NCBI GenBank assembly: GCA_027046625.1
Contig: JALTXX010000003.1
Coordinates: 5,147-69,146, forward strand
Reading direction: 5' to 3'
DNA from: Candidatus Micrarchaeota archaeon
Lineage (GTDB): Archaea; Iainarchaeota; Iainarchaeia; JAADDC01
DNA: 64,000 bases
The position numbers and the translations under genes are program-made. The first letter of the stretch is position 1. The number at the start of each line of letters is the position of its first letter. Under the pieces are notes generated by a model that searched no databases, was not told where the DNA came from, and was given only the letters and a program-made list of their open reading frames with translations. Below are positions 12 to 46,009 of the stretch, in pieces.

Positions 12-512
12 ATGGACGTTATCTCATGGCTGGCATTGGTAGCTCAGTTTATTATAGGAGTATATTTAGCTTCTCTTATTGTTTTGAGGGTATATTACCG
101 GGAGAAGGGAGAGAAGGTGAATGTGTTTGTGGAAGCTTGGAAAAAATGGGTCCACGCATTTTTAGGACTCATTCTTCTCTTATCCGTGCCCTTTGTTCTA
201 TTCTTTGTATCCTTTTCTAACTCATCTCTCTGGTGGATAAATATCCTCTCCCTTCTCTGGGTAGGGGTGTGGTTGCCCGTGCTTTCTGCTTTGGTTGTGT
301 ACAAGGGCAGAGGCAGAGACAGAGTATATGAAGGATTACTGGCAGGAAGGGTTACATGGTGGAAGATCATAGTGATTCTCATTGTGTTTGGCCTCTTCTT
401 CGGGGTGCTAACGTTGTATCTTCCATTCATAGGGTGGGTGTGGGAGACGCTGATGGGAGCGGTGCTCTATATTGTTTCGGCGAGGAGCCTCCTCCTCTTT
501 GAGGGTGAATAG
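12..512 (+). CDS. hypothetical polytopic membrane protein
   Basis: 166-aa ORF with at least 4 hydrophobic helices; no recognisable motif; its stop abuts the tmcA start. Confidence 0.35.
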   Translation: MDVISWLALVAQFIIGVYLASLIVLRVYYREKGEKVNVFVEAWKKWVHAFLGLILLLSVPFVLFFVSFSNSSLWWINILSLLWVGVWLPVLSALVVYKGRGRDRVYEGLLAGRVTWWKIIVILIVFGLFFGVLTLYLPFIGWVWETLMGAVLYIVSARSLLLFEGE

Positions 513-513
513 T

Positions 514-2706
514 ATGGAACGTATCTTTAACAATATGAAGGAAAGCAGACACAGGAGACTGTTCTTTGTGGCTGGTGAGGGAAGGGAGGTTGTGGATAAA
601 ACATCCGAAATACTTAGGATGGCTGAGGATAGTCTAGGAACAAAAGAGTTTTTGTACATGGCAGAGTTTCCTGAATATTCTACGGGTGATGAAGAACGGT
701 ATGCCATGCTATCTGATGAGTTTAAGCTAAGAAGGTATCCATATGCGAGGGGGAAGGAAATACTAGGCAAAACCTTCGAAGGACTCATTCTAGATGCACA
801 CGAAAACTTCCCTGCAAGGGAGGTAGGTATTTCCATAGAAACGGTTAGAGGACCGGGAGTAATAATAGTAATGATGCCGCCTATAGAGGAGTGGCTGAAA
901 AGGAAGCTATTCCTGCATAAGCAGTACGTAGTTACACCGCCATATAGGTTAGAAGATTGCAGGAATGTATATCAGAAGCGAGTGATAAAGAAGGCCATTG
1001 AACTTCCGGGTATTTATATTTGGGAAAAAGAGCTATCCGGAAAGGAACCCGAGACTAAGAAGGAGAGGAGAAAAAGGATAAAGATAAAGGAGGGGAGATT
1101 TCCCCAAGAGCTGTATAAGATGGCCTACACAGAAGATCAGTATAATGTTCTTAGACGGTTAGAGGAGACGGAGGATGAAGCCGTTGTAATATTGGCAAAC
1201 AGGGGAAGGGGCAAGTCAGCAGTGCTGGGTTTGTATATAGCTGGACTGGGGTCCCTGGGGGAGAAGAAGAAAATCGTTGTTACAGCCCCTACGGAGGACA
1301 GTGTTGACGAACTGTTTAAGTTCATAAGGTTAGGAGGGGAAAAAGTAGGTATCAAGGTTAGAGGAAGTAGAAGGAAGTTGAAGGTAGGATCAGCCAAGGT
1401 GCTTTTCAGAGAGCCATTGGAGGTAATGGGGTTAAAGGGAGACATACTTGTTGTGGATGAAGCTGCAGGTATCTATGTTTCCATCCTTAAGGAATATCTA
1501 GACAGGTTTGATACCCAGATTTACTCTACTACAGTGCATGGATATGAGGGGACAGGTAGACTATTCCAGTATAGATTTTTACCCTCCCTAAAGGAGAAGA
1601 AGAAGGTAGAGATCCTTAGAATGTCCGAGCCTATACGATATGGGACTGACGATCCTGTAGAGAGATGGTTGTACGAGGTGTATCTACTTGATGCAGAGCC
1701 TGCAAAGGTAAAGGATGTAAAAGGTTTGTCCTTTGAAAGACGGGATATAGAGTCGTTATTTTTGAGGGATGAAAACATCTTGAAGGAGTATATAGGTATA
1801 TACGTGTTTGCACACTACAGGAACAATCCGAGAGATATAACAATACTGGCTGATGCACCCAATCAAAGGGCTTATATGGTATTTGGAGACAAACATGTGG
1901 TATCCTCTCTCCAGGTAGCGGAGGAGGGCGGACTGGGAGATGAGGATATTTACAGATTCTTGGAGGGGGATATCGTCTATGGCAACATCATACCTGATAT
2001 CTTTGTGAGATACTATGAGTTTGCAGAGTTTGCGAGGGAGAAGGGTCTGAGAATTGTAAGAATAGCCACACATCCAGATTTACAAGGAAGAGGTATTGGT
2101 AGTTTTGCCCTGAAGAGTTTGGAAAGTGAAGCAAAGAAGGAGGGAATGGCTTGGACGGGTGCTGGTTTTGGGGCCTCCTATGAGGTGGTGAGGTTCTGGA
2201 AGAAGAACGGGTATACCATGGTGCACGTTTCTCCCAAGAGAAATCCTGCAAGTGGTGAATATACTACCATCTTTGTAAAACCTCTCAAGGAGAAGATCAA
2301 AAGATACATAAATATTGCGAATATGGTGGCAAGGAGACGGTTGTTAGAGGAAATGGACAACTATTACAGTGGTATGGAGCCCTCTGTTGCGGTAGAGTTG
2401 CTAACATCGGGAAGGAAGATAAAGATGGAGCCTGATATAACAGAGGCAGAGATGGTGAAGCTGAGGAGGTATATAGAAGGGTATTTAAACTATGATACGG
2501 TGTCAGATATTGTAAAAAGAATTGTAACATGGTACTTTATGGCGGATGGAGAGACTCTGCCCCAGACGGATGCTATGTTTCTGGTAGAAAAGGTGTTAAA
2601 GAAAAAGAACTGGACGAGGGCAGCAAAAACATTTAATATGGAACCGTCCAAATTCTCAAAGAAGTTTGATAGTATTGTAGAGAGGTTGTATGAGGTGATT
2701 CGTTGA
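514..2706 (+). CDS. tmcA: tRNA/rRNA cytidine N4-acetyltransferase TmcA (NAT10/Kre33 homolog); likely start is the internal ATG at 514 rather than the track start at 472
   Basis: Helicase-type Walker A (ANRGRGKSAV) and DEAA box, followed by a GNAT acetyltransferase motif (HPDLQGRGIGSFAL) and a C-terminal tRNA-binding helical region. The ATG at 514 lies 2 nt after the upstream stop. Confidence 0.8.
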   Translation: MERIFNNMKESRHRRLFFVAGEGREVVDKTSEILRMAEDSLGTKEFLYMAEFPEYSTGDEERYAMLSDEFKLRRYPYARGKEILGKTFEGLILDAHENFPAREVGISIETVRGPGVIIVMMPPIEEWLKRKLFLHKQYVVTPPYRLEDCRNVYQKRVIKKAIELPGIYIWEKELSGKEPETKKERRKRIKIKEGRFPQELYKMAYTEDQYNVLRRLEETEDEAVVILANRGRGKSAVLGLYIAGLGSLGEKKKIVVTAPTEDSVDELFKFIRLGGEKVGIKVRGSRRKLKVGSAKVLFREPLEVMGLKGDILVVDEAAGIYVSILKEYLDRFDTQIYSTTVHGYEGTGRLFQYRFLPSLKEKKKVEILRMSEPIRYGTDDPVERWLYEVYLLDAEPAKVKDVKGLSFERRDIESLFLRDENILKEYIGIYVFAHYRNNPRDITILADAPNQRAYMVFGDKHVVSSLQVAEEGGLGDEDIYRFLEGDIVYGNIIPDIFVRYYEFAEFAREKGLRIVRIATHPDLQGRGIGSFALKSLESEAKKEGMAWTGAGFGASYEVVRFWKKNGYTMVHVSPKRNPASGEYTTIFVKPLKEKIKRYINIANMVARRRLLEEMDNYYSGMEPSVAVELLTSGRKIKMEPDITEAEMVKLRRYIEGYLNYDTVSDIVKRIVTWYFMADGETLPQTDAMFLVEKVLKKKNWTRAAKTFNMEPSKFSKKFDSIVERLYEVIR

Positions 2707-3011
2707 GACTTCACCTTGATCCCCGATTTGTAAGGGATGTATTGAGGGGCAGAAAGAAAGCCACCGTAAGGTTAGGGAAGAGGGACGTAAAACCTGGGGA
2801 TGTGGTATTTCTTACATCGGATAGAGGCCCCTTCGCTAAGGCAGTGATCATAAAGGTTAAGAGAACACCCCTGAAAAAGTTAACAAAAGAAGAAATAAGA
2901 AGGGAAGGATCAAGGAGTTTGGGGGAGCTGCTTGAAACATTGAGACACTTTTACCCTGGTATTACGGAGGATACTGAAGTTACCTATATTGAATGGAAGT
3001 TGGTTAGATAG
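2703..3011 (+). CDS. ASCH-domain (PUA-like) protein, translationally coupled to tmcA
   Basis: 102 aa with an ASCH-like core (GRKKATVRLGKR...GD) and small beta-barrel pattern. TTG start overlaps the tmcA stop (gTTGA). Confidence 0.5.
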   Translation: MRLHLDPRFVRDVLRGRKKATVRLGKRDVKPGDVVFLTSDRGPFAKAVIIKVKRTPLKKLTKEEIRREGSRSLGELLETLRHFYPGITEDTEVTYIEWKLVR

Positions 3012-3190
3012 ATTCTATACCAAGTTCCATGTGCTTTATTCCTTCTAGGCGGGCGCTGACGTCTATGAGGAGGTTCCTTTCTCTCTTTCCCCCTACCATA
3101 GCCAGTGTAACCAATCTATCTATCTCCTCCATGGGGGTATGAGGCAGGGAGGATTTTAAGTTTTGCGGAAGTGTATATTTCCGGTAACCC

Positions 3191-4210
3191 ATGTACATTA
3201 GAAGGTTTACAGGGGAGGAACGAGGTATACTGCTCAATCCCCAAGTATTTGACCCTTCCTATATTCCAGAAGAGCTTCCCTTTAGAGAGGAGCAAATGGA
3301 AACTATCGCATCGGAGATAAACATGTACATAAGAGAAGGAAAGGCAACACATCTTCTCCTTTACGGTCCGCCTGGCACAGGAAAGACTGTTACGCTGAAA
3401 AAGCTTTTATCTGAGGCAGAAGCGGTATATTCTGTCAAAACCATCTATATAAATGGATGGAAGCATAGAACCACAACCTCTATACTTACAGAGATGGCAA
3501 CAAAACTGGGAGTAGGAGTATCTGTGAGGGGAATGTCCACGGGTAGGTTATTATCTATTGTAGAGGGAGGGATTGAAGGTCCTCTCATTGTGGCACTTGA
3601 CGAAGTAGACAGGGTATCGGATCAAGAAATACTATATGAGCTGAGTAGGATGGGTATCATGTTTATAGGGGTTGCCAACCAGCTATATTTTATCTATAGG
3701 CTTGATCCTCGTATAGTATCTACACTTTATGGTATTAAAATAGAGTACAAACCTTATACAGTCCCCCAGTTAACAGAGATTCTCAGAAGGAGGGCAGAAG
3801 CAGGCTTATATCCAGGAACTTGGAATGAGGAGGTGTTGAGAGGGTGTGCTGCGGTAGGGTTTAGCAGAAATGGGGATGCGAGAATTGCCATCGAGTGTTT
3901 GTATACGGCTGCTCGCATAGCAGAGAGGGAAGGAGATGTTATCACTTTGGATCATGTGAGAAGAGCAAAAGAAATGGTAGGCAGACCGCTGGATTTGGAT
4001 CCCAAGTATATGAAAATCGTGGAAATTTTGAGGGCAGAAGGCCCTCTTACTGTAAAAGAGTTATACCAGAGGTATGTAAAGTATAATCCCATTAGTATAA
4101 GAGCCTTTAGGAACTACATAAGGGAACTTGAGCGATTAAATGTTATATCTGTCCAGAGGTTAAACAGAAGGGGTCAAGTAAGAGAGGTAAGATTGGTAGA
4201 GTACCTTTAA
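3191..4210 (+). CDS. orc1: Orc1/Cdc6 replication initiator
   Basis: AAA+ Walker [12 protein letters not shown], Walker B LIVALDEVD, sensor and C-terminal winged-helix region; 339 aa, shorter than typical Orc1. Confidence 0.8.
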   Translation: MYIRRFTGEERGILLNPQVFDPSYIPEELPFREEQMETIASEINMYIREGKATHLLLYGPPGTGKTVTLKKLLSEAEAVYSVKTIYINGWKHRTTTSILTEMATKLGVGVSVRGMSTGRLLSIVEGGIEGPLIVALDEVDRVSDQEILYELSRMGIMFIGVANQLYFIYRLDPRIVSTLYGIKIEYKPYTVPQLTEILRRRAEAGLYPGTWNEEVLRGCAAVGFSRNGDARIAIECLYTAARIAEREGDVITLDHVRRAKEMVGRPLDLDPKYMKIVEILRAEGPLTVKELYQRYVKYNPISIRAFRNYIRELERLNVISVQRLNRRGQVREVRLVEYL

Positions 4211-4234
4211 ATAGGGGAAAGCCCTTCTCTACTT

Positions 4235-4420
4235 ATGGATAACAAGGAGGTGGCTCTTGAACTGTTGAAGATGTACCTCCAACATCATAGAGGCGAGATC
4301 TCCCTAGAAGAGCTCGTAGAGGCCTATCTTGCAATTGTTGAAATGTTGGAAACTCCTATACCAAAGGAAAAGTCCCCGGACTACTCAGCTCCTCTATCCC
4401 TTTCAGATAAAGAGGCCTAG
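4235..4420 (+). CDS. small hypothetical protein
   Basis: 61-aa ORF between orc1 and a convergent gene; no motif. Confidence 0.2.
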   Translation: MDNKEVALELLKMYLQHHRGEISLEELVEAYLAIVEMLETPIPKEKSPDYSAPLSLSDKEA

Positions 4421-5145
4421 CCTTCTACGGGATATACGATCATTCCCCTTTCCCTTGTAATCTCTATGGGATGTATGTTGGTAGAGTGGTTAGTGCCTCT
4501 CATCTTTCTTATGTGGAGAGTTCTTGTGGTGGGGCCTCCGCCTCCCAGATACGAAAGTATGATTACCCCATCAGCTACAAACTCCTCTACTCCATACTTA
4601 GAATAGAAGTTGGAGTTTTCTGGAATTTCAGATGTTATAATAGAGGTTAACCCACTTTTCATGAGGGCATAACTCATCTTTAAAATAGCCTTTCTAATAT
4701 CGTTCTCGCTTTCGTATCTAAATCCTAGTGCAGGCAACGAATCTACAGCCACTCTTTTGGCTCCCATTTCTTTGGCAGCTTTTATAATCTCCACGAGCAG
4801 CCTATCTATGTCAAAACCGGTTTCTGGCATGTGGTACACTTCTTCTGAAGGAAGTCCAACCTTTGCAATGGAGGCATCTATGATGCGTATCATATCCTTT
4901 TCTTCCTCCCTCTTGAAGTCCCACCCAAATTGTAGCATATCTTCCCTTATAAGGTTGGGCCTCTCATCGAGGGTTACCAAAATACCGGGTTCGTCGTAGT
5001 CTACGGCACCTTTATATATAAACTGGCTGCAGAAGATGGTTTTACCGGTACCCGTAGCTCCTGAAACGAGTATCATCCTTCTCCGGGGAAAACCCCCTTC
5101 TATGAGCTCGTCCAATCCCTCTATACCGGTTGGTACTCTGTCCAT
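4417..5145 (-). CDS. RecA-superfamily ATPase, RadA paralog / KaiC-like (aRadC type)
   Basis: Single RecA core of 242 aa: GIEGLDELIEGGFP, Walker A GATGTGKT, Walker B ILSYLGGGG-like region. Confidence 0.6.
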   Translation of the reverse strand: MDRVPTGIEGLDELIEGGFPRRRMILVSGATGTGKTIFCSQFIYKGAVDYDEPGILVTLDERPNLIREDMLQFGWDFKREEEKDMIRIIDASIAKVGLPSEEVYHMPETGFDIDRLLVEIIKAAKEMGAKRVAVDSLPALGFRYESENDIRKAILKMSYALMKSGLTSIITSEIPENSNFYSKYGVEEFVADGVIILSYLGGGGPTTRTLHIRKMRGTNHSTNIHPIEITRERGMIVYPVEG

Positions 5146-5195
5146 GTTCTAATAATACACCCCCATCTAAATAACCTTTTCCCCCATATTATGAG

Positions 5196-5534
5196 GTGGC
5201 ACGGAGGCCATCTGCAGAGGAAACATATGTGAAAGATATAGCAGAAGAGGGCAAGCTGTATGCTGTAGAGGGTGTTATAGTGTCTTCTGACCCGACAAGG
5301 GGTGAAGGTGTATTAGATGATGGTACAGGAACTCTCAAATTTGTATTGGATAGTATGATATTTGCGGAAAGGATAAAGGAAGGAACGTTTGTGCGTCTTA
5401 TAGGGAGGGCATATCTAACGGATGATGGTATTGTTTTAAGAGCAGAGGTAGTAAACAATCTTAACGTAGGAAGTGATATGTATAATAGGGTAAAAAGGTT
5501 AGAAAGGAGGGTTTATCATGAGGGTGGTGTTTGA
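5196..5534 (+). CDS. small OB-fold-like nucleic-acid-binding protein (putative)
   Basis: 112 aa with beta-rich OB-like pattern (LYAVEGVIVS...GTGTLKFVL); GTG start; sits immediately upstream of PCNA. Confidence 0.3.
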   Translation: MARRPSAEETYVKDIAEEGKLYAVEGVIVSSDPTRGEGVLDDGTGTLKFVLDSMIFAERIKEGTFVRLIGRAYLTDDGIVLRAEVVNNLNVGSDMYNRVKRLERRVYHEGGV

Positions 5535-6255
5535 AGGAGCGGATGTGTTCAAAAAATCCATGAAAGCCATTGGAAATATCGTGGATGAAGGGGTATTTAC
5601 CTTTGATGATGAAGGTATGAAGCTCAGATCTACTGATCCATCAAAGATAGCCATGGTGGACTTCCTTTTGCCTAAGCACGCCTTTAGAGAATATGAGGTA
5701 GAGGGTGAGACAAAGGTAGGACTCAACATAGACGAGGTTATGAATGCCTTGAAGAGGGTGAAGAGTAGTGAGGAGGTACACCTCTCCCTAGAGGATGGGA
5801 GATTTATAATAGAGCTTGTGGGAAAGGCAAAAAGAAGGTTTGTGCTTCCTGTACTTGACATAGGGGGGTCAGAACTCCCCACACCGAAGCTATCGTTTAC
5901 AGCAAGCTCAAAGGTAATATCAGAGGTGTTACAAAACGCATTCAAAGACGCAGAGGTATTCTCTAGCCATGTTACGATAGAAATGGACTCAGAAACCTTC
6001 AAGGTGAGTGCTAGTGGTGCGAGGGGTGAGTATGTGTTGGAGCTAAAGAAGGATGTACATGATTCTTTGCTGGATCTAGCTGTTAGCGAACCTGCAAGAG
6101 CTTCCTATCCATTGGACTATCTCCAAGACATGTTAAGTGAGGTGAGTAAAACAGCAGCGGTTACCATAGCAATAAAGACAGACGCACCTCTTAAACTGGG
6201 GTATAACATAGGGGATGCAAGCTTTGTGTACTATCTCGCTCCCCGCATTGAGTGA
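5518..6255 (+). CDS. pcn: DNA polymerase sliding clamp PCNA (paralog 1)
   Basis: 245 aa, typical PCNA length and two-domain pattern; start overlaps the upstream gene. Confidence 0.8.
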   Translation: MRVVFEGADVFKKSMKAIGNIVDEGVFTFDDEGMKLRSTDPSKIAMVDFLLPKHAFREYEVEGETKVGLNIDEVMNALKRVKSSEEVHLSLEDGRFIIELVGKAKRRFVLPVLDIGGSELPTPKLSFTASSKVISEVLQNAFKDAEVFSSHVTIEMDSETFKVSASGARGEYVLELKKDVHDSLLDLAVSEPARASYPLDYLQDMLSEVSKTAAVTIAIKTDAPLKLGYNIGDASFVYYLAPRIE

Positions 6256-6989
6256 TAGATATGTTAATATTCAGGGTGTCTCCCAGAGATACAAGGGCTT
6301 GGAAGACAACCTTTGATGTAATATCCCAATTTATTACGGAGGGTATACTTCAGTTTAGAGAAAGGGGCATCGAGTTCGAAGCTCTCGATCCTTCAATGAT
6401 ACTCTTTGTGAGAATGTTTTATCCAAAGGAAGGATTTTCTGTCTATGAACTGAAACACCCAATCGTGAATGTGCCCCTCCCGCTCTCGGAGCTCCAGAGA
6501 ATACTCGGAAGGGTACAGCAGAGCGCAAATCTTATTTTAGAGCTGCATGGGAGTACCTTGAAAATCTATATAGAGGGAGAACGCTCAATAAAGGAGTATC
6601 TCTTGCCTGTTATAGATATGGAACCATCTCCTGTAGCCATAAATCTACCTCAGGAAGGAGCCAAGATAATTGCTTTGGCGGAGGACATAAGGGACGCCCT
6701 GAGAGATGTGGGTGTGGTATCCAAGCAGGTAACTGTAGGAGTGAAGGATGGCAAACTATATTTTGAGAGTGTGGAGGGAAACAGCAAGGCAAAGACTGTG
6801 ATAGAAAGAGCAAATGTGGACGCATCTTCTAATGTAAAATCCGTATACCCTCTAGATTACCTTTCAAGTATTGTGAGGGGGGCGGAAGATGAGATATCTA
6901 TGGTGGTGGGAGAGGATTCTCCCATAAGGATAGATTATAGAACAGGTGACGCCAGGCTTATGTTTGTTCTTGCACCTATACTATTATGA
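6252..6989 (+). CDS. pcn: DNA polymerase sliding clamp PCNA (paralog 2)
   Basis: Second 245-aa PCNA-like ORF, ATGA-overlapped with paralog 1; consistent with heterotrimeric PCNA of crenarchaea. Confidence 0.75.
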   Translation: MIDMLIFRVSPRDTRAWKTTFDVISQFITEGILQFRERGIEFEALDPSMILFVRMFYPKEGFSVYELKHPIVNVPLPLSELQRILGRVQQSANLILELHGSTLKIYIEGERSIKEYLLPVIDMEPSPVAINLPQEGAKIIALAEDIRDALRDVGVVSKQVTVGVKDGKLYFESVEGNSKAKTVIERANVDASSNVKSVYPLDYLSSIVRGAEDEISMVVGEDSPIRIDYRTGDARLMFVLAPILL

Positions 6990-9003: not shown

Positions 9004-9512
9004 AAAACGTGCATCTTGCAGAAAAGAGCAGCGCAGACCTAAGTAAGGTAGAGCCGGACTTTTATGAGCAGCTGGCCAAGTTTTTACAGGAGGAGAGAAA
9101 GAAATTTTATGAAATGGTGGAGAAGAGCGCTGATAATCTAGATCCTGCAGATGTATACTATTATAAGAACCTTTCCACCATAGTAAGGGAGATTATTCTT
9201 ATGAGATCTGAAAAGGTGGTAAGAAGGGCTGTTCAAGAAGTAAATAGTCCAGCCTCTTCTGAAAATATGGTGGATTGGGAGAAAGAACTATACTGGCATG
9301 TTAGAAAAGAGGTGGAATCTAGATTATCAAGTGTGGTGGGAGAGGGGAGTCATTTAAATCTTGTGCGTGTGAGGATTCTTACAGATATACCCATGTTTGT
9401 GGGGCCGGATCTAAAGGAGTATGGGCCCTACAGAATGGGTGAAGAGGTCCCCCTTCCTAGGGAGGTGGCAGAACTCCTGAAAAGTAAGGGGCAGGCGGAG
9501 GTGATAGAATGA
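8979..9512 (+). CDS. gins15: GINS subunit, probable Gins15/Gins51
   Basis: 177 aa, helical N-domain plus small C-domain. Position after PriS and before eS27/aIF2-alpha matches the conserved PriS-Gins15 arrangement. Confidence 0.45.
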
Positions 9513-9697
9513 AACTACCCATACCAGTTCCTAGATCAAGGTTTCTTAGGGTAAAGTGCCCTTCCTGTGGTAGTGTTAACATTGTGTTTGACCGTGCATC
9601 CACTGTGGTGACGTGCCTATCCTGTGGGGAGGTGTTGGCAGAGCCTACAGGAGGAAAGGCGAAGATATTGGGCGAGGTTGTGGAGGTACTCACATGA
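9509..9697 (+). CDS. rps27e: ribosomal protein eS27
   Basis: C4 zinc ribbon CPSCG...CLSCG and the PTGGKAK motif; 62 aa. Confidence 0.8.
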
Positions 9698-10452
9698 AGG
9701 CACCGGAACAGAACGATTATGTGGTGGTAAAGGTAACGCGCATCATCCAGTACGGAGCGTATGTAGAGCTTGAAGAGTTTCCCGGCTGGACAGGGTTTAT
9801 ACATATATCTGAGGTAGCTCCTTACTGGGTAAAGAACATAAGAAGCCATGTTAGAGAGGGACAAACAAGGGTAGCCAAGGTATTGAAGGTATACCCAGAC
9901 AAGAAGAGTACAGATCTTTCTCTGAAAAGAGTACCTCAAGCTATAGCCAAGAGAAAGATGGAAGAGCTTAGGAGATCAAAGAGGGGAAAGTTCCTTCTTG
10001 AGCTTGCCGCAAAGTCTATGGGGAGAGATCCTAAAGAGGTGGAAGAGGTATTGGAAAAGGAGTTTGGAGATGTGTTTGGAGCCTTTGAAAATGCAGCTCT
10101 CTATGGAAGGGAAGTATTAGAGAGTGTGGATATAGATGAGGAGTGGAAAAGGGCTATTGTAGAGATTGCAAACAAGTATATAGAGATTCCAAGGAAGAAA
10201 GTGATGAGAACCCTTGAAATAACAGTTCCTGGCCCCTATGGAGCCAAGGTAATAAGAGAATCTCTTCTATCTATTATTAAAGAGAGCAAGCCAAACACAG
10301 AGATAAGGGCATATGTGGCAGGTGTGCCAAGATACACAGTTGAGGTAATTTCCCATGACTATAGAACGGCTGAGAAGGTAATAGATGAGATGGTGGAGCG
10401 TATAAGGGAGGGTGTGGAGAAGGAAAAGGGAAAAGTTGAGGTGGTAGAATGA
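9694..10452 (+). CDS. eif2a: translation initiation factor aIF2 alpha subunit
   Basis: N-terminal S1 domain (VVVKVTRI...GAYVELEEF...GFIHISEV) plus helical and alpha-beta domains. True start is the ATG at 9694 (MKAPEQ), overlapping the eS27 stop. Confidence 0.85.
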
Positions 10453-17797: not shown

Positions 17798-18031
17798 GGG
17801 CAGCGGGCCGTAGGCCGCCTTCTGTATTGAGACGGGATTAGACTTAGCGGGCATTCGCCCTTGCACCCAACCCGGACCGTTTCAACCACACCACACATCA
17901 TGGGTAGGGGTACCTCATCCCTCCGTGTGGTGGGTGTCGTTTCTGTTCCCGGGAGTCCCTCACGGGACTTGTTTTTAGCGGGTGGGCGGACCTTCCTCAG
18001 GAGACCCCCGAGACCCGTCTGCCCGCTGCCC
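17798..18031 (-). ncRNA. rnpB: structured ncRNA, probably a miniaturised (type T-like) RNase P RNA
   Basis: GC-rich (approx. 62%) island in an approx. 45% GC context. Perfect 11-bp terminal helix (GGGCAGCGGGC / GCCCGCUGCCC). Minus-strand reading contains GAGGAAGGUCCGCCC (close to CR-I GAGGAAAGUCCGGGC) and ACAGAAAC (CR-IV-like), plus a candidate P2 pairing GACGGG / CCCGUC. No protein coding potential. SRP RNA was considered but no helix-8 AGCA/GNRA signature was found. Confidence 0.45.
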
Positions 18032-32181: not shown

Positions 32182-33682
<1,501 letters not shown>

Positions 33683-43934: not shown

Positions 43935-45407
43935 TTACTCTATTTTAACTACACCCTCTACCATCTCAAGAGCCGCCTTCAACTTTCTCTGACTGTTGGA
44001 GTACAATGTAATTATGGTGTCTCCCCTGGAAACAACGCTTCCAACACCTCTTTCTATCCATATACCCGCTCCCTTGTCCACAGGAGCTCCCAACATCCTA
44101 CTGAGGAGGGAAATTTTAGAGGGAGATATGTAGGCCACTCTTCCATCTTTCGGAGAAGAAACACTTTCCCTATACTTTCCCGGTGTTAGATCCTCCCATT
44201 TTATGTCAGGATCACCTCCCTGTGCTTCAATTATGCTTCTAAGCTTCTTCTCAGCCTCGCCACTCTTAAACGTATCCAGGGCCAATTTTCTAGCCTTTAC
44301 AATAGGAACCTTTTTCAAAAACGCCAGCATCCTGCCTGTTATCTCTATACCCTTTTCCAAAAGATCCTTTGAGCCGTTTCTTTCATATGTCTGTAGAATG
44401 TCTATCGCTTCAAGGACAGGGCCTACACCTCTCCCAATAGGTTTCACACCACTGGAAATGAACCCTATCACCTTTATACCTAGCATGTCTCCTAGCTTCT
44501 TGAAGTGTTCTTCCCATTCCTTTGCCTGGGAAAAGGATTTCACTTTGGCCTCTGGACCTACGGGAATATCAAGCACCATGTACTTAGACGATACTGCGTA
44601 TTTCTTGGCCATGATAGATGCCAACACCAACCCGAGAGGATCCAACCTCAACGGTCTTCTTATCTGGATGAGTTTATCATCTGCAGCCGCAATGTTGGCT
44701 CCCCCACCCCACGCTATTACACCACCCACACTTTTTACAATCTCCTCTATTTCCTCTGCAGTTAGATCCACCCTTGCAAACACCTCCATAGTGTCTGCTG
44801 TCCCAGAGGGAGATGTGATGGCCCTGGAGGATGTCTTAGGAACTAAATAGCCTAGGGATGCCATAATGGGAACATAGAAGAATGTAATCCTATTACCTGG
44901 AATGCCTCCAATGCTGTGCTTATCTACCACTTCACCCTCAAGGAACACTCTATTTCCACTCTCTGCTATGGCAACAGTAAGATCTCTTACCTCCTCTTCT
45001 GATAGACCATTAATTTGGCAGGCTGTAACAAAGGCAGATGCCTCTGCGGGGAAGAGGTATCCGTTTACAACATCCATAATGATGGCCTTTATCTCTTCAG
45101 CGGATAGGGTTTCGCCCATAATCTTCTTCCTTATATATTCCACACTGATAGGTGGTTCCTCGGGGAATACTTCTACCTCTTCCCCATTCCTAACACCTAA
45201 TATCTCTGCCACATCCTTGAAGACACCCACCTCATCTTCCTCTATAAACGTGTTGGTGGTGTTGATGATGGTCACAACAGATTTATCATTCTTTGATATG
45301 AGAAGCCTTCCATCTGGCCCTTCTCCCATTTTTGACGCAGTCTTTTCATTTAGCACAGAAATATATCTATGTGCATCCATGTCAAGGATCTTTACCCTTA
45401 GCTTCAC
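43935..45407 (-). CDS. deoA: AMP phosphorylase (archaeal DeoA/thymidine phosphorylase family)
   Basis: 490 aa. N-terminus MKLRVKILDMD... typical of archaeal AMPpase, glycosyltransferase family 3 core (GGxPGNRI, SRAITSPSGT). Confidence 0.7.
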   Translation of the reverse strand: MKLRVKILDMDAHRYISVLNEKTASKMGEGPDGRLLISKNDKSVVTIINTTNTFIEEDEVGVFKDVAEILGVRNGEEVEVFPEEPPISVEYIRKKIMGETLSAEEIKAIIMDVVNGYLFPAEASAFVTACQINGLSEEEVRDLTVAIAESGNRVFLEGEVVDKHSIGGIPGNRITFFYVPIMASLGYLVPKTSSRAITSPSGTADTMEVFARVDLTAEEIEEIVKSVGGVIAWGGGANIAAADDKLIQIRRPLRLDPLGLVLASIMAKKYAVSSKYMVLDIPVGPEAKVKSFSQAKEWEEHFKKLGDMLGIKVIGFISSGVKPIGRGVGPVLEAIDILQTYERNGSKDLLEKGIEITGRMLAFLKKVPIVKARKLALDTFKSGEAEKKLRSIIEAQGGDPDIKWEDLTPGKYRESVSSPKDGRVAYISPSKISLLSRMLGAPVDKGAGIWIERGVGSVVSRGDTIITLYSNSQRKLKAALEMVEGVVKIE

Positions 45408-45439: not shown

Positions 45440-46009
45440 TTGTGGGAACATGTAGACGTGGTGGTGAAGAAGTATCTCATGGTGAAGGGAAATTTCTTAG
45501 ATGCTATTCTAAAGGGAAGAAAGAGGATTACAATTAGAAGAAGAACGCGATTAAAGGCTGGAGATAAGTTTTACATACATTCTATGGGAAAGATATGGGG
45601 AATAGGAGAGGTTACAAAGGTGGAAAAAATTATGAAGGATGAGATCGGAGATGAGATAGCAAAAGAGGAGGGTATGACGCTGGAAGAGCTAAAAAAGTAT
45701 TTGGATAGGTTTTACGGGAAGAAGAATGTGCCCCTCTATGTCATACATTTTCGTGTTGCAGAGGTGTTTCCTGAGCCCAAAGATCCAGAAAAAGATGTGT
45801 ATGGAGGTATGCGACCGGGAAAGATTGCTGCTTTAGCACTAAAATACCTTCACCTTGATGAGGAAGCCATGAAGATACTGAGGAGGTTGAAGGAGACGGA
45901 TAGTATAAGAGCGGTTGCCATTGAAATGGGTGGACTAAATAGGAGGAAGAAGGTGAGGGCAATCTTAAGAAAGGCAGTAGAGATGTTAAAAGAAAAAGGA
46001 GTTATTTAG
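45440..46009 (+). CDS. ASCH-domain protein with C-terminal helical extension (second ASCH paralog)
   Basis: ASCH core (GRKRITIRRR...GD) within the first approx. 110 aa; start may be an internal Met (MVKGNF). Confidence 0.45.
   Translation: MWEHVDVVVKKYLMVKGNFLDAILKGRKRITIRRRTRLKAGDKFYIHSMGKIWGIGEVTKVEKIMKDEIGDEIAKEEGMTLEELKKYLDRFYGKKNVPLYVIHFRVAEVFPEPKDPEKDVYGGMRPGKIAALALKYLHLDEEAMKILRRLKETDSIRAVAIEMGGLNRRKKVRAILRKAVEMLKEKGVI

Follow-up and report, generated by a model that had tools for sequence, protein, structure and literature searches.

Here, we describe a gene pair in which tmcA, encoding a predicted RNA cytidine N4-acetyltransferase, overlaps a gene for a 102-amino-acid ASCH-domain protein that we predict to be an N4-acetylcytidine (ac4C) amidohydrolase. 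The pair (positions 514-3011) was found in a 64,000-nucleotide stretch of DNA, hereafter the window, from a Candidatus Micrarchaeota archaeon (assembly GCA_027046625.1, contig JALTXX010000003.1, positions 5,147-69,146 of the forward strand). Judging from the gene layout, the active-site residues and a structural model, we consider it likely that the two genes are co-transcribed and translationally coupled, that deacetylase is made in proportion to the acetyltransferase (the "writer"), and that the 102-amino-acid protein hydrolyses the N4-acetyl group of ac4C. Both the pairing of the two genes and the deacetylation of ac4C by archaeal ASCH proteins have already been reported in two 2026 preprints (10.64898/2026.08.01.741249; 10.64898/2026.02.27.708502). 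Added here are the breadth of the pair among archaea and its absences, the near-universal overlap of start and stop codons, the co-variation of TmcA with the ASCH protein, and the difference in charge between the ASCH protein and its Escherichia coli relative YqfB.

The junction of tmcA and the ASCH gene

The two genes belong to a group of three closely packed genes on the forward strand (Table 1). As the original prediction stated, the stop codon of tmcA overlaps the TTG start codon of the ASCH gene, the two sharing the tetranucleotide TTGA. The ASCH reading frame opens only at position 2694, following a stop codon at 2691-2693, and the TTG is therefore the sole start upstream of the conserved N-terminus. 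This start also gives the protein an N-terminal length like that of its homologues (MRLHL.. compared with MMLHF../MLHF.. in the alignment). Just upstream, within the 3′ end of tmcA, the Shine-Dalgarno sequence GAGGTGAT can pair over eight nucleotides with the 3′ end of the 16S rRNA that the window itself encodes (...GGATCACCTCC), and relatives carry GGAGG/GGGTGA motifs at the equivalent place. For tmcA itself, an alternative in-frame start exists at TTG 472; the ATG at 514 is preferred because GAGGGTGA forms a good ribosome-binding site for it.

Table 1. Coordinates of the features discussed in the text (numbered within the window)
Feature	Position	Strand	Basis and remarks
Upstream open reading frame, hydrophobic protein, 166 amino acids as seen	12-512	+	stop TAG 510-512; no Pfam family
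Shine-Dalgarno-like GAGGGTGA for tmcA	501-508	+	5 nucleotides upstream of ATG 514; sequence reading
tmcA, 730 amino acids	514-2706	+	ATG 514, TGA 2704-2706; Pfam
Shine-Dalgarno GAGGTGAT within the tmcA 3′ end	2692-2699	+	serves the ASCH TTG; GAGG core 7 nucleotides upstream of the start
TTGA, ASCH start TTG (2703-2705) overlapping tmcA stop TGA (2704-2706)	2703-2706	+	4-nucleotide overlap
ASCH gene, 102 amino acids	2703-3011	+	TTG 2703, TAG 3009-3011; Pfam ASCH
ASCH octapeptide G16-R-K18-K-A-T21-V-R23 ("GKTR" type)	2748-2771	+	alignments with YqfB
E68 codon, aligned to YqfB E74, the acid of the proposed triad	2904-2906	+	alignment
Y84 codon, aligned to YqfB Y89	2952-2954	+	alignment; invariant in alignment A2
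16S rRNA gene, complete, archaeal	32182-33682	-	64.7% G+C; 55 CCG triplets
Long-form ASCH paralogue	45440-46009	+	Pfam ASCH 3e-16; start TTG 45440, GTG 45458 or ATG 45479

A predicted deacetylase of the YqfB clade

The 102-amino-acid protein matches the Pfam ASCH family (PF04266) at 1.2e-17, with 64.9 bits against a cut-off of 21.2, and its only significant matches among all PDB sequences are two entries for E. coli YqfB (9kyf at 6.8e-5 and 1te7 at 2.5e-4). In 2020, YqfB was identified as an ac4C amidohydrolase, with a kcat/Km on the free nucleoside of up to 2.8e6 M-1 s-1 (PMC6972931). An AlphaFold2 model of the window's protein, built on 31 homologues, has a mean predicted local distance difference test (pLDDT) score of 96.6. 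Its best Foldseek matches are again YqfB (9kyf and 9kyh), with template modelling (TM) scores of 0.84-0.85, a root-mean-square deviation of 1.6-1.7 Å and 30% identity; the matched YqfB crystal structures include forms with and without ac4C, and other ASCH structures come next at TM scores of 0.72-0.76 or less. Like YqfB (PDB 1TE7, 9KYF-9KYH), the protein is a stand-alone ASCH β-barrel of about 100 amino acids with a GxKxxTxR signature and equivalents of Glu74 and Tyr89.

The similarity extends to the residues on which catalysis depends. In the alignment, K18, T21 and R23 of the octapeptide correspond to K21, T24 and R26 of YqfB, each of which abolishes activity when replaced by alanine, while the partners of E68 and Y84 are residues whose alanine substitutions (E74A, Y89A) lower activity about 1000-fold and 3-fold, respectively (PMC6972931). 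K18, T21, R23 and Y84 are invariant in 22 tmcA-linked ASCH sequences (the window's included), in YqfB and in a second ASCH paralogue of the window. Position 68 is always Glu or Asp in the same set; it is followed by Gly in all 22 linked sequences, compared with E-N in YqfB. The catalytic positions of YqfB, raised in the original prediction as a point to be compared, are thus present. What sets the YqfB clade apart is Thr or Ser at the middle position of the octapeptide, where the TRIP4/EOLA1 clade has Glu (10.64898/2026.02.27.708502; 10.64898/2026.08.01.741249). As the window's protein has Thr at this position, it falls in the YqfB clade, and we describe it as a stand-alone ASCH protein of that clade and a predicted ac4C amidohydrolase.

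A PUA-like protein encoded next to tmcA might instead be a non-catalytic partner of TmcA: an RNA-binding specificity or adaptor subunit that recruits substrates or reads acetylated sites. The PUA-like fold and very basic character of the protein would suit such a subunit, as would the overlap of its gene with tmcA and its co-inheritance with TmcA (see below). Eukaryotic NAT10 needs an adaptor for tRNA, and Tan1/THUMPD1, the partner of Kre33/NAT10, would be the analogue. However, the Lys, Thr and Arg residues required for hydrolysis in YqfB are invariant across the linked homologues, which makes a pure adaptor or reader role unlikely. Many archaea, including the Thermococcales, possess TmcA but no tmcA-linked ASCH gene, and their TmcA modifies many RNAs. 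Moreover, every ASCH protein tested in one 2026 preprint was catalytically active (10.64898/2026.02.27.708502). We therefore hold a non-catalytic role to be very unlikely. The pair had originally been proposed as a writer plus reader/eraser module; the evidence points to an enzyme, be it an eraser or a salvage deacetylase, and the passive reader is the part of that proposal that we would drop.

The linked acetyltransferase

The product of tmcA has the same three-domain core and conserved motifs as other archaeal TmcA proteins (for example that of Thermococcus kodakarensis), bacterial TmcA and eukaryotic NAT10/Kre33. An N-terminal TmcA_N domain (DUF1726, PF08351; 9.7e-28, residues 3-169) is accompanied by a P-loop helicase/ATPase domain (NAT10_TcmA_helicase, PF05127; 1.9e-48) and an acetyltransferase domain (GNAT_acetyltr_2, PF13718; 4.1e-33). 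The Walker A motif RGRGKS (R230-S235) and residues G527 and G529 of the acetyl-CoA-binding loop QGRGIGS are invariant among the 16 diverse archaeal TmcAs of alignment A1. The C-terminal tRNA_bind_2 domain (PF13725) is matched weakly (E 0.0038, 17.4 bits against a cut-off of 27), and the NCBIfam TmcA model is matched at 1.8e-128, under the cut-off of that haloarchaeal model. We classify the protein as a full-length archaeal TmcA/NAT10-type RNA cytidine N4-acetyltransferase, with its activity predicted from these motifs. Searches retrieved 1484 TmcA homologues; the nearest relatives are at most 61% identical and come from metagenome-assembled genomes (MAGs), some labelled Diapherotrites. Identity to the Thermococcales proteins is 37-40%, and the window's TmcA is shorter, with 730 amino acids compared with about 810-825.

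The pair recurs across archaeal lineages

A word-indexed homology search with the 102-amino-acid protein returned only the protein itself, and exhaustive HMMER and profile searches were needed to find homologues. For the linkage analysis, the 80 best tmcA loci were collected with an archaeal TmcA profile from archaeal and bacterial contigs representing one genome per species, and the six-frame open reading frames (ORFs) of these loci were searched with ASCH profiles; 78 of the 80 had enough downstream sequence to be evaluated. In 24 of these 78, tmcA is immediately followed by an ASCH ORF in the same orientation. The positive loci include four from DPANN archaea (Iainarchaeum-labelled, Micrarchaeota-labelled and related MAGs), five of nine from Bathyarchaeia, three of five from Archaeoglobales, two of four from Nitrososphaerota and two from Nezhaarchaeota, as well as loci from Methanomethylicota, Scotarchaeum, DHVE2, Alkanophaga, Geothermarchaeota and a few unclassified MAGs. 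Beyond the 78, looking up exact protein matches revealed the pair in two closer relatives (L002 and L003), and Korarchaeota contigs (L084 and L085) carry it too. The adjacency is thus conserved in other archaea and not specific to this genome.

Equally, entire groups lack it among the loci examined. No linked ASCH gene was found at any of the seven Thermococcales loci, at the 14 loci from Desulfurococcales, Acidilobaceae and Pyrodictiaceae, at the six from Thermofilaceae, at the four each from Thermoproteales/Thermoproteaceae and Nanoarchaeota, or at the Helarchaeota locus. The Thermococcales are the hyperthermophile group in which heavy ac4C modification has been studied. Because all Thermococcales loci examined lack the overlapping and presumably translationally coupled gene seen in the window, the pairing does not characterise the ac4C biology of hyperthermophiles in general, and its bearing on the heavy ac4C of hyperthermophiles is weaker than first implied.

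Where the pair is present, its geometry is mostly constant. The best-supported ASCH start lies within the last 1-68 nucleotides of tmcA in 24 of 27 pairs; among the other three, one start abuts the tmcA stop and two fall within 71 nucleotides after it. Such a pattern could in principle be incidental, reflecting local synteny kept by descent with no functional link between the genes. Indeed, the close DPANN relatives retain the whole block (membrane protein, tmcA, ASCH, cdc6 and a KaiC-like ATPase gene, on to PCNA), so that the presence of the pair in these genomes proves nothing alone. Outside the closest relatives, however, the flanking genes differ and only the tmcA-ASCH pair is kept. As its downstream, same-strand and mostly overlapping order recurs in many lineages despite these different flanks, the adjacency is more than chance. 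The reciprocal chemistry predicted for the two enzymes also speaks against mere coincidence, and we consider a purely incidental adjacency highly improbable. Pairwise distances among the TmcA proteins and among their ASCH partners co-vary as well (Mantel r 0.91, or 0.86 without close relatives, with none of 2000 permutations reaching the observed value), which is consistent with inheritance as a unit.

Some loci and sequences require separate comment. A contig labelled "uncultured bacterium" (L071, CBEVQO010000001.1) carries an archaeal-type tmcA-ASCH pair, and the taxonomic label of this MAG may be wrong; L085, a Korarchaeota-type contig, stems from the same ENA assembly. ASCH candidates located 1.4-2.3 kb downstream of tmcA in four Desulfurococcales/Acidilobaceae loci (L040, L055, L056 and L073) were dropped because they were weak jackhmmer matches, obtained with the long-paralogue query only and unconfirmed by the broader ASCH profile. 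P0169 was rejected as an ASCH homologue, being a kinase-repeat false positive. In a search for domain fusions in longer ASCH homologues (P0125, P0138, P0166, P0168, P0182, P0188, P0203, P0237 and P0243), Pfam gave ASCH alone.

Free ac4C or RNA as the substrate

An enzyme of this kind could act on free ac4C, on ac4C within RNA, or on both. If it served salvage purely, it would accept only the free nucleoside and N4-acetylcytidine monophosphate (ac4CMP) released by RNA turnover and would regenerate cytidine from acetylated forms that cytidine deaminase and phosphorylases cannot use; the operon would then merely scale salvage capacity to the amount of ac4C made. The closeness of fold and active site to YqfB argues for this, the best-documented activity of YqfB being on the free nucleoside (PMC6972931). 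A preprint on human EOLA1 likewise argues that the role of YqfB and EOLA1 is to salvage free ac4C rather than to act on structured RNA, and reports that N4-acetylation blocks cytidine deaminase (10.64898/2026.08.01.741249). The same preprint reports a conserved operon of TmcA/Nat10 with a YqfB-clade ASCH protein in "several prokaryotes" (its Fig. S1a, for which the text gives no archaeal breakdown); the text takes this operon as support for action on TmcA-made ac4C and reads it in terms of salvage. The window holds the same gene pair and would follow the same logic, with the deacetylase acting on the ac4C of the linked acetyltransferase. DPANN archaea usually depend on salvaged nucleotides, and the host of the window is DPANN-like; in addition, the second ASCH paralogue sits next to a phosphorylase-like gene in the window and in same-lineage relatives, although this adjacency is missing in distant genomes (see below). 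Weighing against pure salvage, tight translational coupling to the writer would be unusual for an enzyme that acts long after synthesis, a highly basic protein is not obviously needed for a nucleoside enzyme, and in E. coli yqfB is not known to be adjacent to tmcA. We regard a purely salvage-directed role as quite possible, if short of probable.

The charge of the protein would instead fit RNA as the substrate. None of the 54 long ORFs of the window reaches its isoelectric point (pI) of 10.5 (their median is 8.1); values of 9.2-11.3 are found in 24 of 26 linked homologues, whereas YqfB has a pI of 4.7. Such a protein could act as an eraser or proofreader on ac4C within RNA, possibly while bound to TmcA, clearing exposed or off-target sites or tuning modification levels, and the overlap of the genes is typical of proteins that are made together. 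It should be noted, though, that small proteins of the window are generally basic (median pI 9.0 for seven ORFs of fewer than 160 amino acids).

Biochemical work on related proteins can be cited on both sides. In a February 2026 preprint, 19 ASCH proteins were tested, including three from Archaeoglobus fulgidus and six from P. kukulkanii, and all were active, removing ac4C from tRNA and hydrolysing the nucleoside (10.64898/2026.02.27.708502). That study, in which gene context is unmentioned, also reports that YqfB does not bind nucleic acids and that an archaeal C-terminal helix-turn-helix (HTH) domain, AAAD_HTH, binds tRNA. One of its proteins, Afu2ASCH, is of the same short GKTR type as the window's protein; it deacetylates tRNA efficiently, acting in cells on ac4C34 of E. 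coli tRNA and in vitro on ac4C12 of wheat tRNA, but gives no tRNA band shift in an electrophoretic mobility shift assay (10.64898/2026.02.27.708502). Its primer-encoded termini (MERINL... and ...FEVVK) resemble the tmcA-linked clade of Archaeoglobales, and it is from these termini only that we infer orthology. The primer sequence had no match among the fetched tmcA loci, which exclude A. fulgidus, and the Afu2ASCH gene is at most a putative neighbour of tmcA in that species. The linked Archaeoglobales homologues share only about 30% identity with the window's ASCH protein, and the hosts of the tested proteins, Archaeoglobus and P. kukulkanii, differ from the DPANN-like MAG of the window.

EOLA1 in turn deacetylates unstructured but not hairpin RNA, which would fit an eraser restricted to exposed sites, yet deletion of EOLA1/2 leaves cellular RNA ac4C unchanged (10.64898/2026.08.01.741249). 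According to Meng et al. 2025, as cited in both preprints, YqfB is likewise inactive on ac4C in intact RNA, and RNA ac4C does not respond to deletion of yqfB. A writer and an eraser made one to one and working on one substrate would also run a futile cycle at the expense of ATP and acetyl-CoA. On balance, we hold an RNA-level eraser or proofreader as a tentative possibility.

A working model and the points against it

In the model that we favour, tmcA and the ASCH gene would form a co-transcribed and translationally coupled pair. TmcA would make ac4C in RNA at the cost of ATP and acetyl-CoA, and the ASCH amidohydrolase would turn ac4C back into cytidine and acetate. Ribosomes terminating on tmcA would encounter both a strong Shine-Dalgarno sequence and the TTG that overlaps the stop, so that the output of the deacetylase would be tied to that of the writer. 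The ASCH protein would thus be a catalytically active ac4C deacetylase dedicated to the products of TmcA. Its main job would be to clear accessible ac4C, meaning the nucleosides, nucleotides and fragments that arise from degradation of acetylated RNA, and it may also clear exposed or misplaced sites in RNA, whereas the ac4C inside folded rRNA and tRNA would be left in place.

Several points weigh against this model. Asp27 and His70 of YqfB, which are 100% conserved among close YqfB homologues and of which the latter lowers activity about 10-fold when replaced by alanine (PMC6972931), are unmatched in the window's protein, where L24 and E64 take their places; these two residues mark the proteobacterial YqfB subfamily rather than the whole YqfB clade. 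Against the NCBIfam equivalog model for YqfB (NF003443), the protein scores 23.4 bits (5.7e-5) with a cut-off of 93, and it is therefore a member of the clade but not an "equivalog" of E. coli YqfB. Besides the loss of the D27 and H70 equivalents, it differs from the E. coli protein in being archaeal, in the overlap of its gene with tmcA and in its basic pI. Furthermore, the linked gene is missing from more than two-thirds of archaeal tmcA loci, so the ASCH gene must be dispensable for TmcA function. The Mantel correlation could merely reflect that both genes track the species tree. Finally, making a writer and an eraser together looks wasteful if they work on the same RNA sites.

A bolder variant, which we think unlikely, would have TmcA and the basic ASCH protein form a physical writer-eraser unit, in which ac4C at exposed or single-stranded sites is stripped as it is made and helix-locked ac4C survives.

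A second, long-form ASCH paralogue

The window encodes another ASCH protein, as had been predicted, and its start may lie at any of the three codons given in Table 1. This paralogue has 183-189 amino acids and an N-terminal YqfB-like ASCH domain with a GRKRITIR motif. It matches the NCBIfam YqfB model at 7.7e-10, better than the linked copy. Its AlphaFold2 model (pLDDT 94.8) consists of a barrel followed by five helices at residues 110-180, and the N-terminal domain matches YqfB in Foldseek with a TMt of 0.85. No Pfam family matches the C-terminal 70-74 amino acids or so. The modelled architecture corresponds to the known archaeal form in which a GKTR-type ASCH domain is joined to AAAD_HTH, as in Afu3ASCH, Pku2ASCH and Pku4ASCH, with the identity of the HTH domain being putative. 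With the short linked protein and this long ASCH-HTH paralogue, the genome carries both archaeal GKTR forms. Homologues of 178-214 amino acids were found by profile search in Thermococcus, Thermogladius and others. A neighbour-joining tree of ASCH domains (100 columns) was too poorly resolved to show whether the linked short forms are monophyletic with respect to the long HTH forms.

The gene for the long paralogue is divergent from, and 32 bp apart from, a phosphorylase-like gene of the AMP/pyrimidine-nucleoside type (43935-45407, reverse strand; Glycos_trans_3N, Glycos_transf_3 and PYNP_C domains). This divergent pair is kept in three relatives of the same lineage (L089, L090 and L091) and may connect the paralogue with nucleotide catabolism or salvage. 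In the distant genomes examined the adjacency was not found, and we rejected it as a general feature of long ASCH genes, confined as it is to the one lineage. In two distant archaea (L087, positions 4001-6464, and L088, Thermogladius calderae CP003531, positions 2120-5778), the long ASCH-HTH homologue instead adjoins radA and a gene for threonyl-tRNA synthetase or its editing domain, which may represent a separate conserved neighbourhood with a tRNA connection. At an Undinarchaeota locus (L007), tmcA is followed at a distance of 1.9 kb, in the same orientation, by a long-form ASCH gene (9185-9844) that closely resembles the window's paralogue (jackhmmer E 1e-83); this is a looser linkage to tmcA with the long instead of the short form.

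Neighbouring genes and the host

Upstream, the stop codon of the ORF for a hydrophobic protein ends one base before the ATG of tmcA, and this ORF is therefore probably co-transcribed with tmcA. Its homologues, present at the same position only in close relatives (L002-L004), have 240-246 amino acids, which is why we think that the ORF is cut by the window edge. Downstream, the next gene is cdc6/orc1 (3191-4210), which follows the ASCH gene after a spacer of 179 nucleotides; as the spacer contains an A/T-rich box, cdc6/orc1 probably has its own promoter. A search of the spacer for origin-like repeats gave nothing convincing. Further along lie a KaiC/RadA-like ATPase gene (4417-5145, reverse strand), a small OB-fold-like ORF and two tandem PCNA paralogues (5518-6255 and 6252-6986, forward strand) whose stop and start codons overlap. 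Together with cdc6, these genes form a replication-gene cluster adjoining the tmcA-ASCH pair, and in close relatives the PCNA region continues with a PriX-like gene.

The host was probably a thermophile or hyperthermophile. This is pointed to by the high G+C content of its structural RNA genes (64.7% for 16S rRNA and 62.5% for RNase P RNA, compared with 44.1% for the window as a whole) and by an IVYWREL fraction of 0.467 across the window's long ORFs. CCG, of which the 16S rRNA gene holds the number of triplets given in Table 1, is the motif reported for archaeal TmcA. An Rfam scan of the window gave no 23S rRNA match beside the 16S gene. The archaeal RNase P RNA (17799-18030, reverse strand) matches the whole 288-position model within only 232 nucleotides, suggesting a reduced form. 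ARAGORN found no tRNA genes in the 64 kb; the region may simply lack them, or they may be split, permuted or intron-rich, as in some DPANN archaea.

Implications for archaeal RNA acetylation

The reversibility of RNA acetylation is under active debate. Erasure of ac4C from tRNA by ASCH proteins is claimed in one 2026 preprint (10.64898/2026.02.27.708502); in another (10.64898/2026.08.01.741249), and in a structural study of 2025, the argument is that these proteins do no more than recycle free ac4C. The window adds another instance of the known operon of TmcA with a YqfB-clade ASCH protein, in a DPANN-like and probably thermophilic host, along with descriptive detail. That the genes for writer and predicted deacetylase overlap and are inherited together in many archaeal lineages is strong contextual evidence for a functional tie in vivo. 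The phyletic pattern also supplies natural comparison sets for ac4C mapping, the pair being present in Archaeoglobales, Bathyarchaeia, Nezhaarchaeota, Korarchaeota and several DPANN MAGs and not in Thermococcales, Desulfurococcales and Nanoarchaeota. If TmcA and the ASCH protein did form a physical writer-eraser unit, lineages with the coupled gene would be expected to show a sparse, structure-restricted ac4C map, and lineages without it, such as the Thermococcales, the broad temperature-dependent acetylation described for that group. In that case, the form of the archaeal ac4C epitranscriptome would be determined by the presence or absence of a single gene of about 100 codons.

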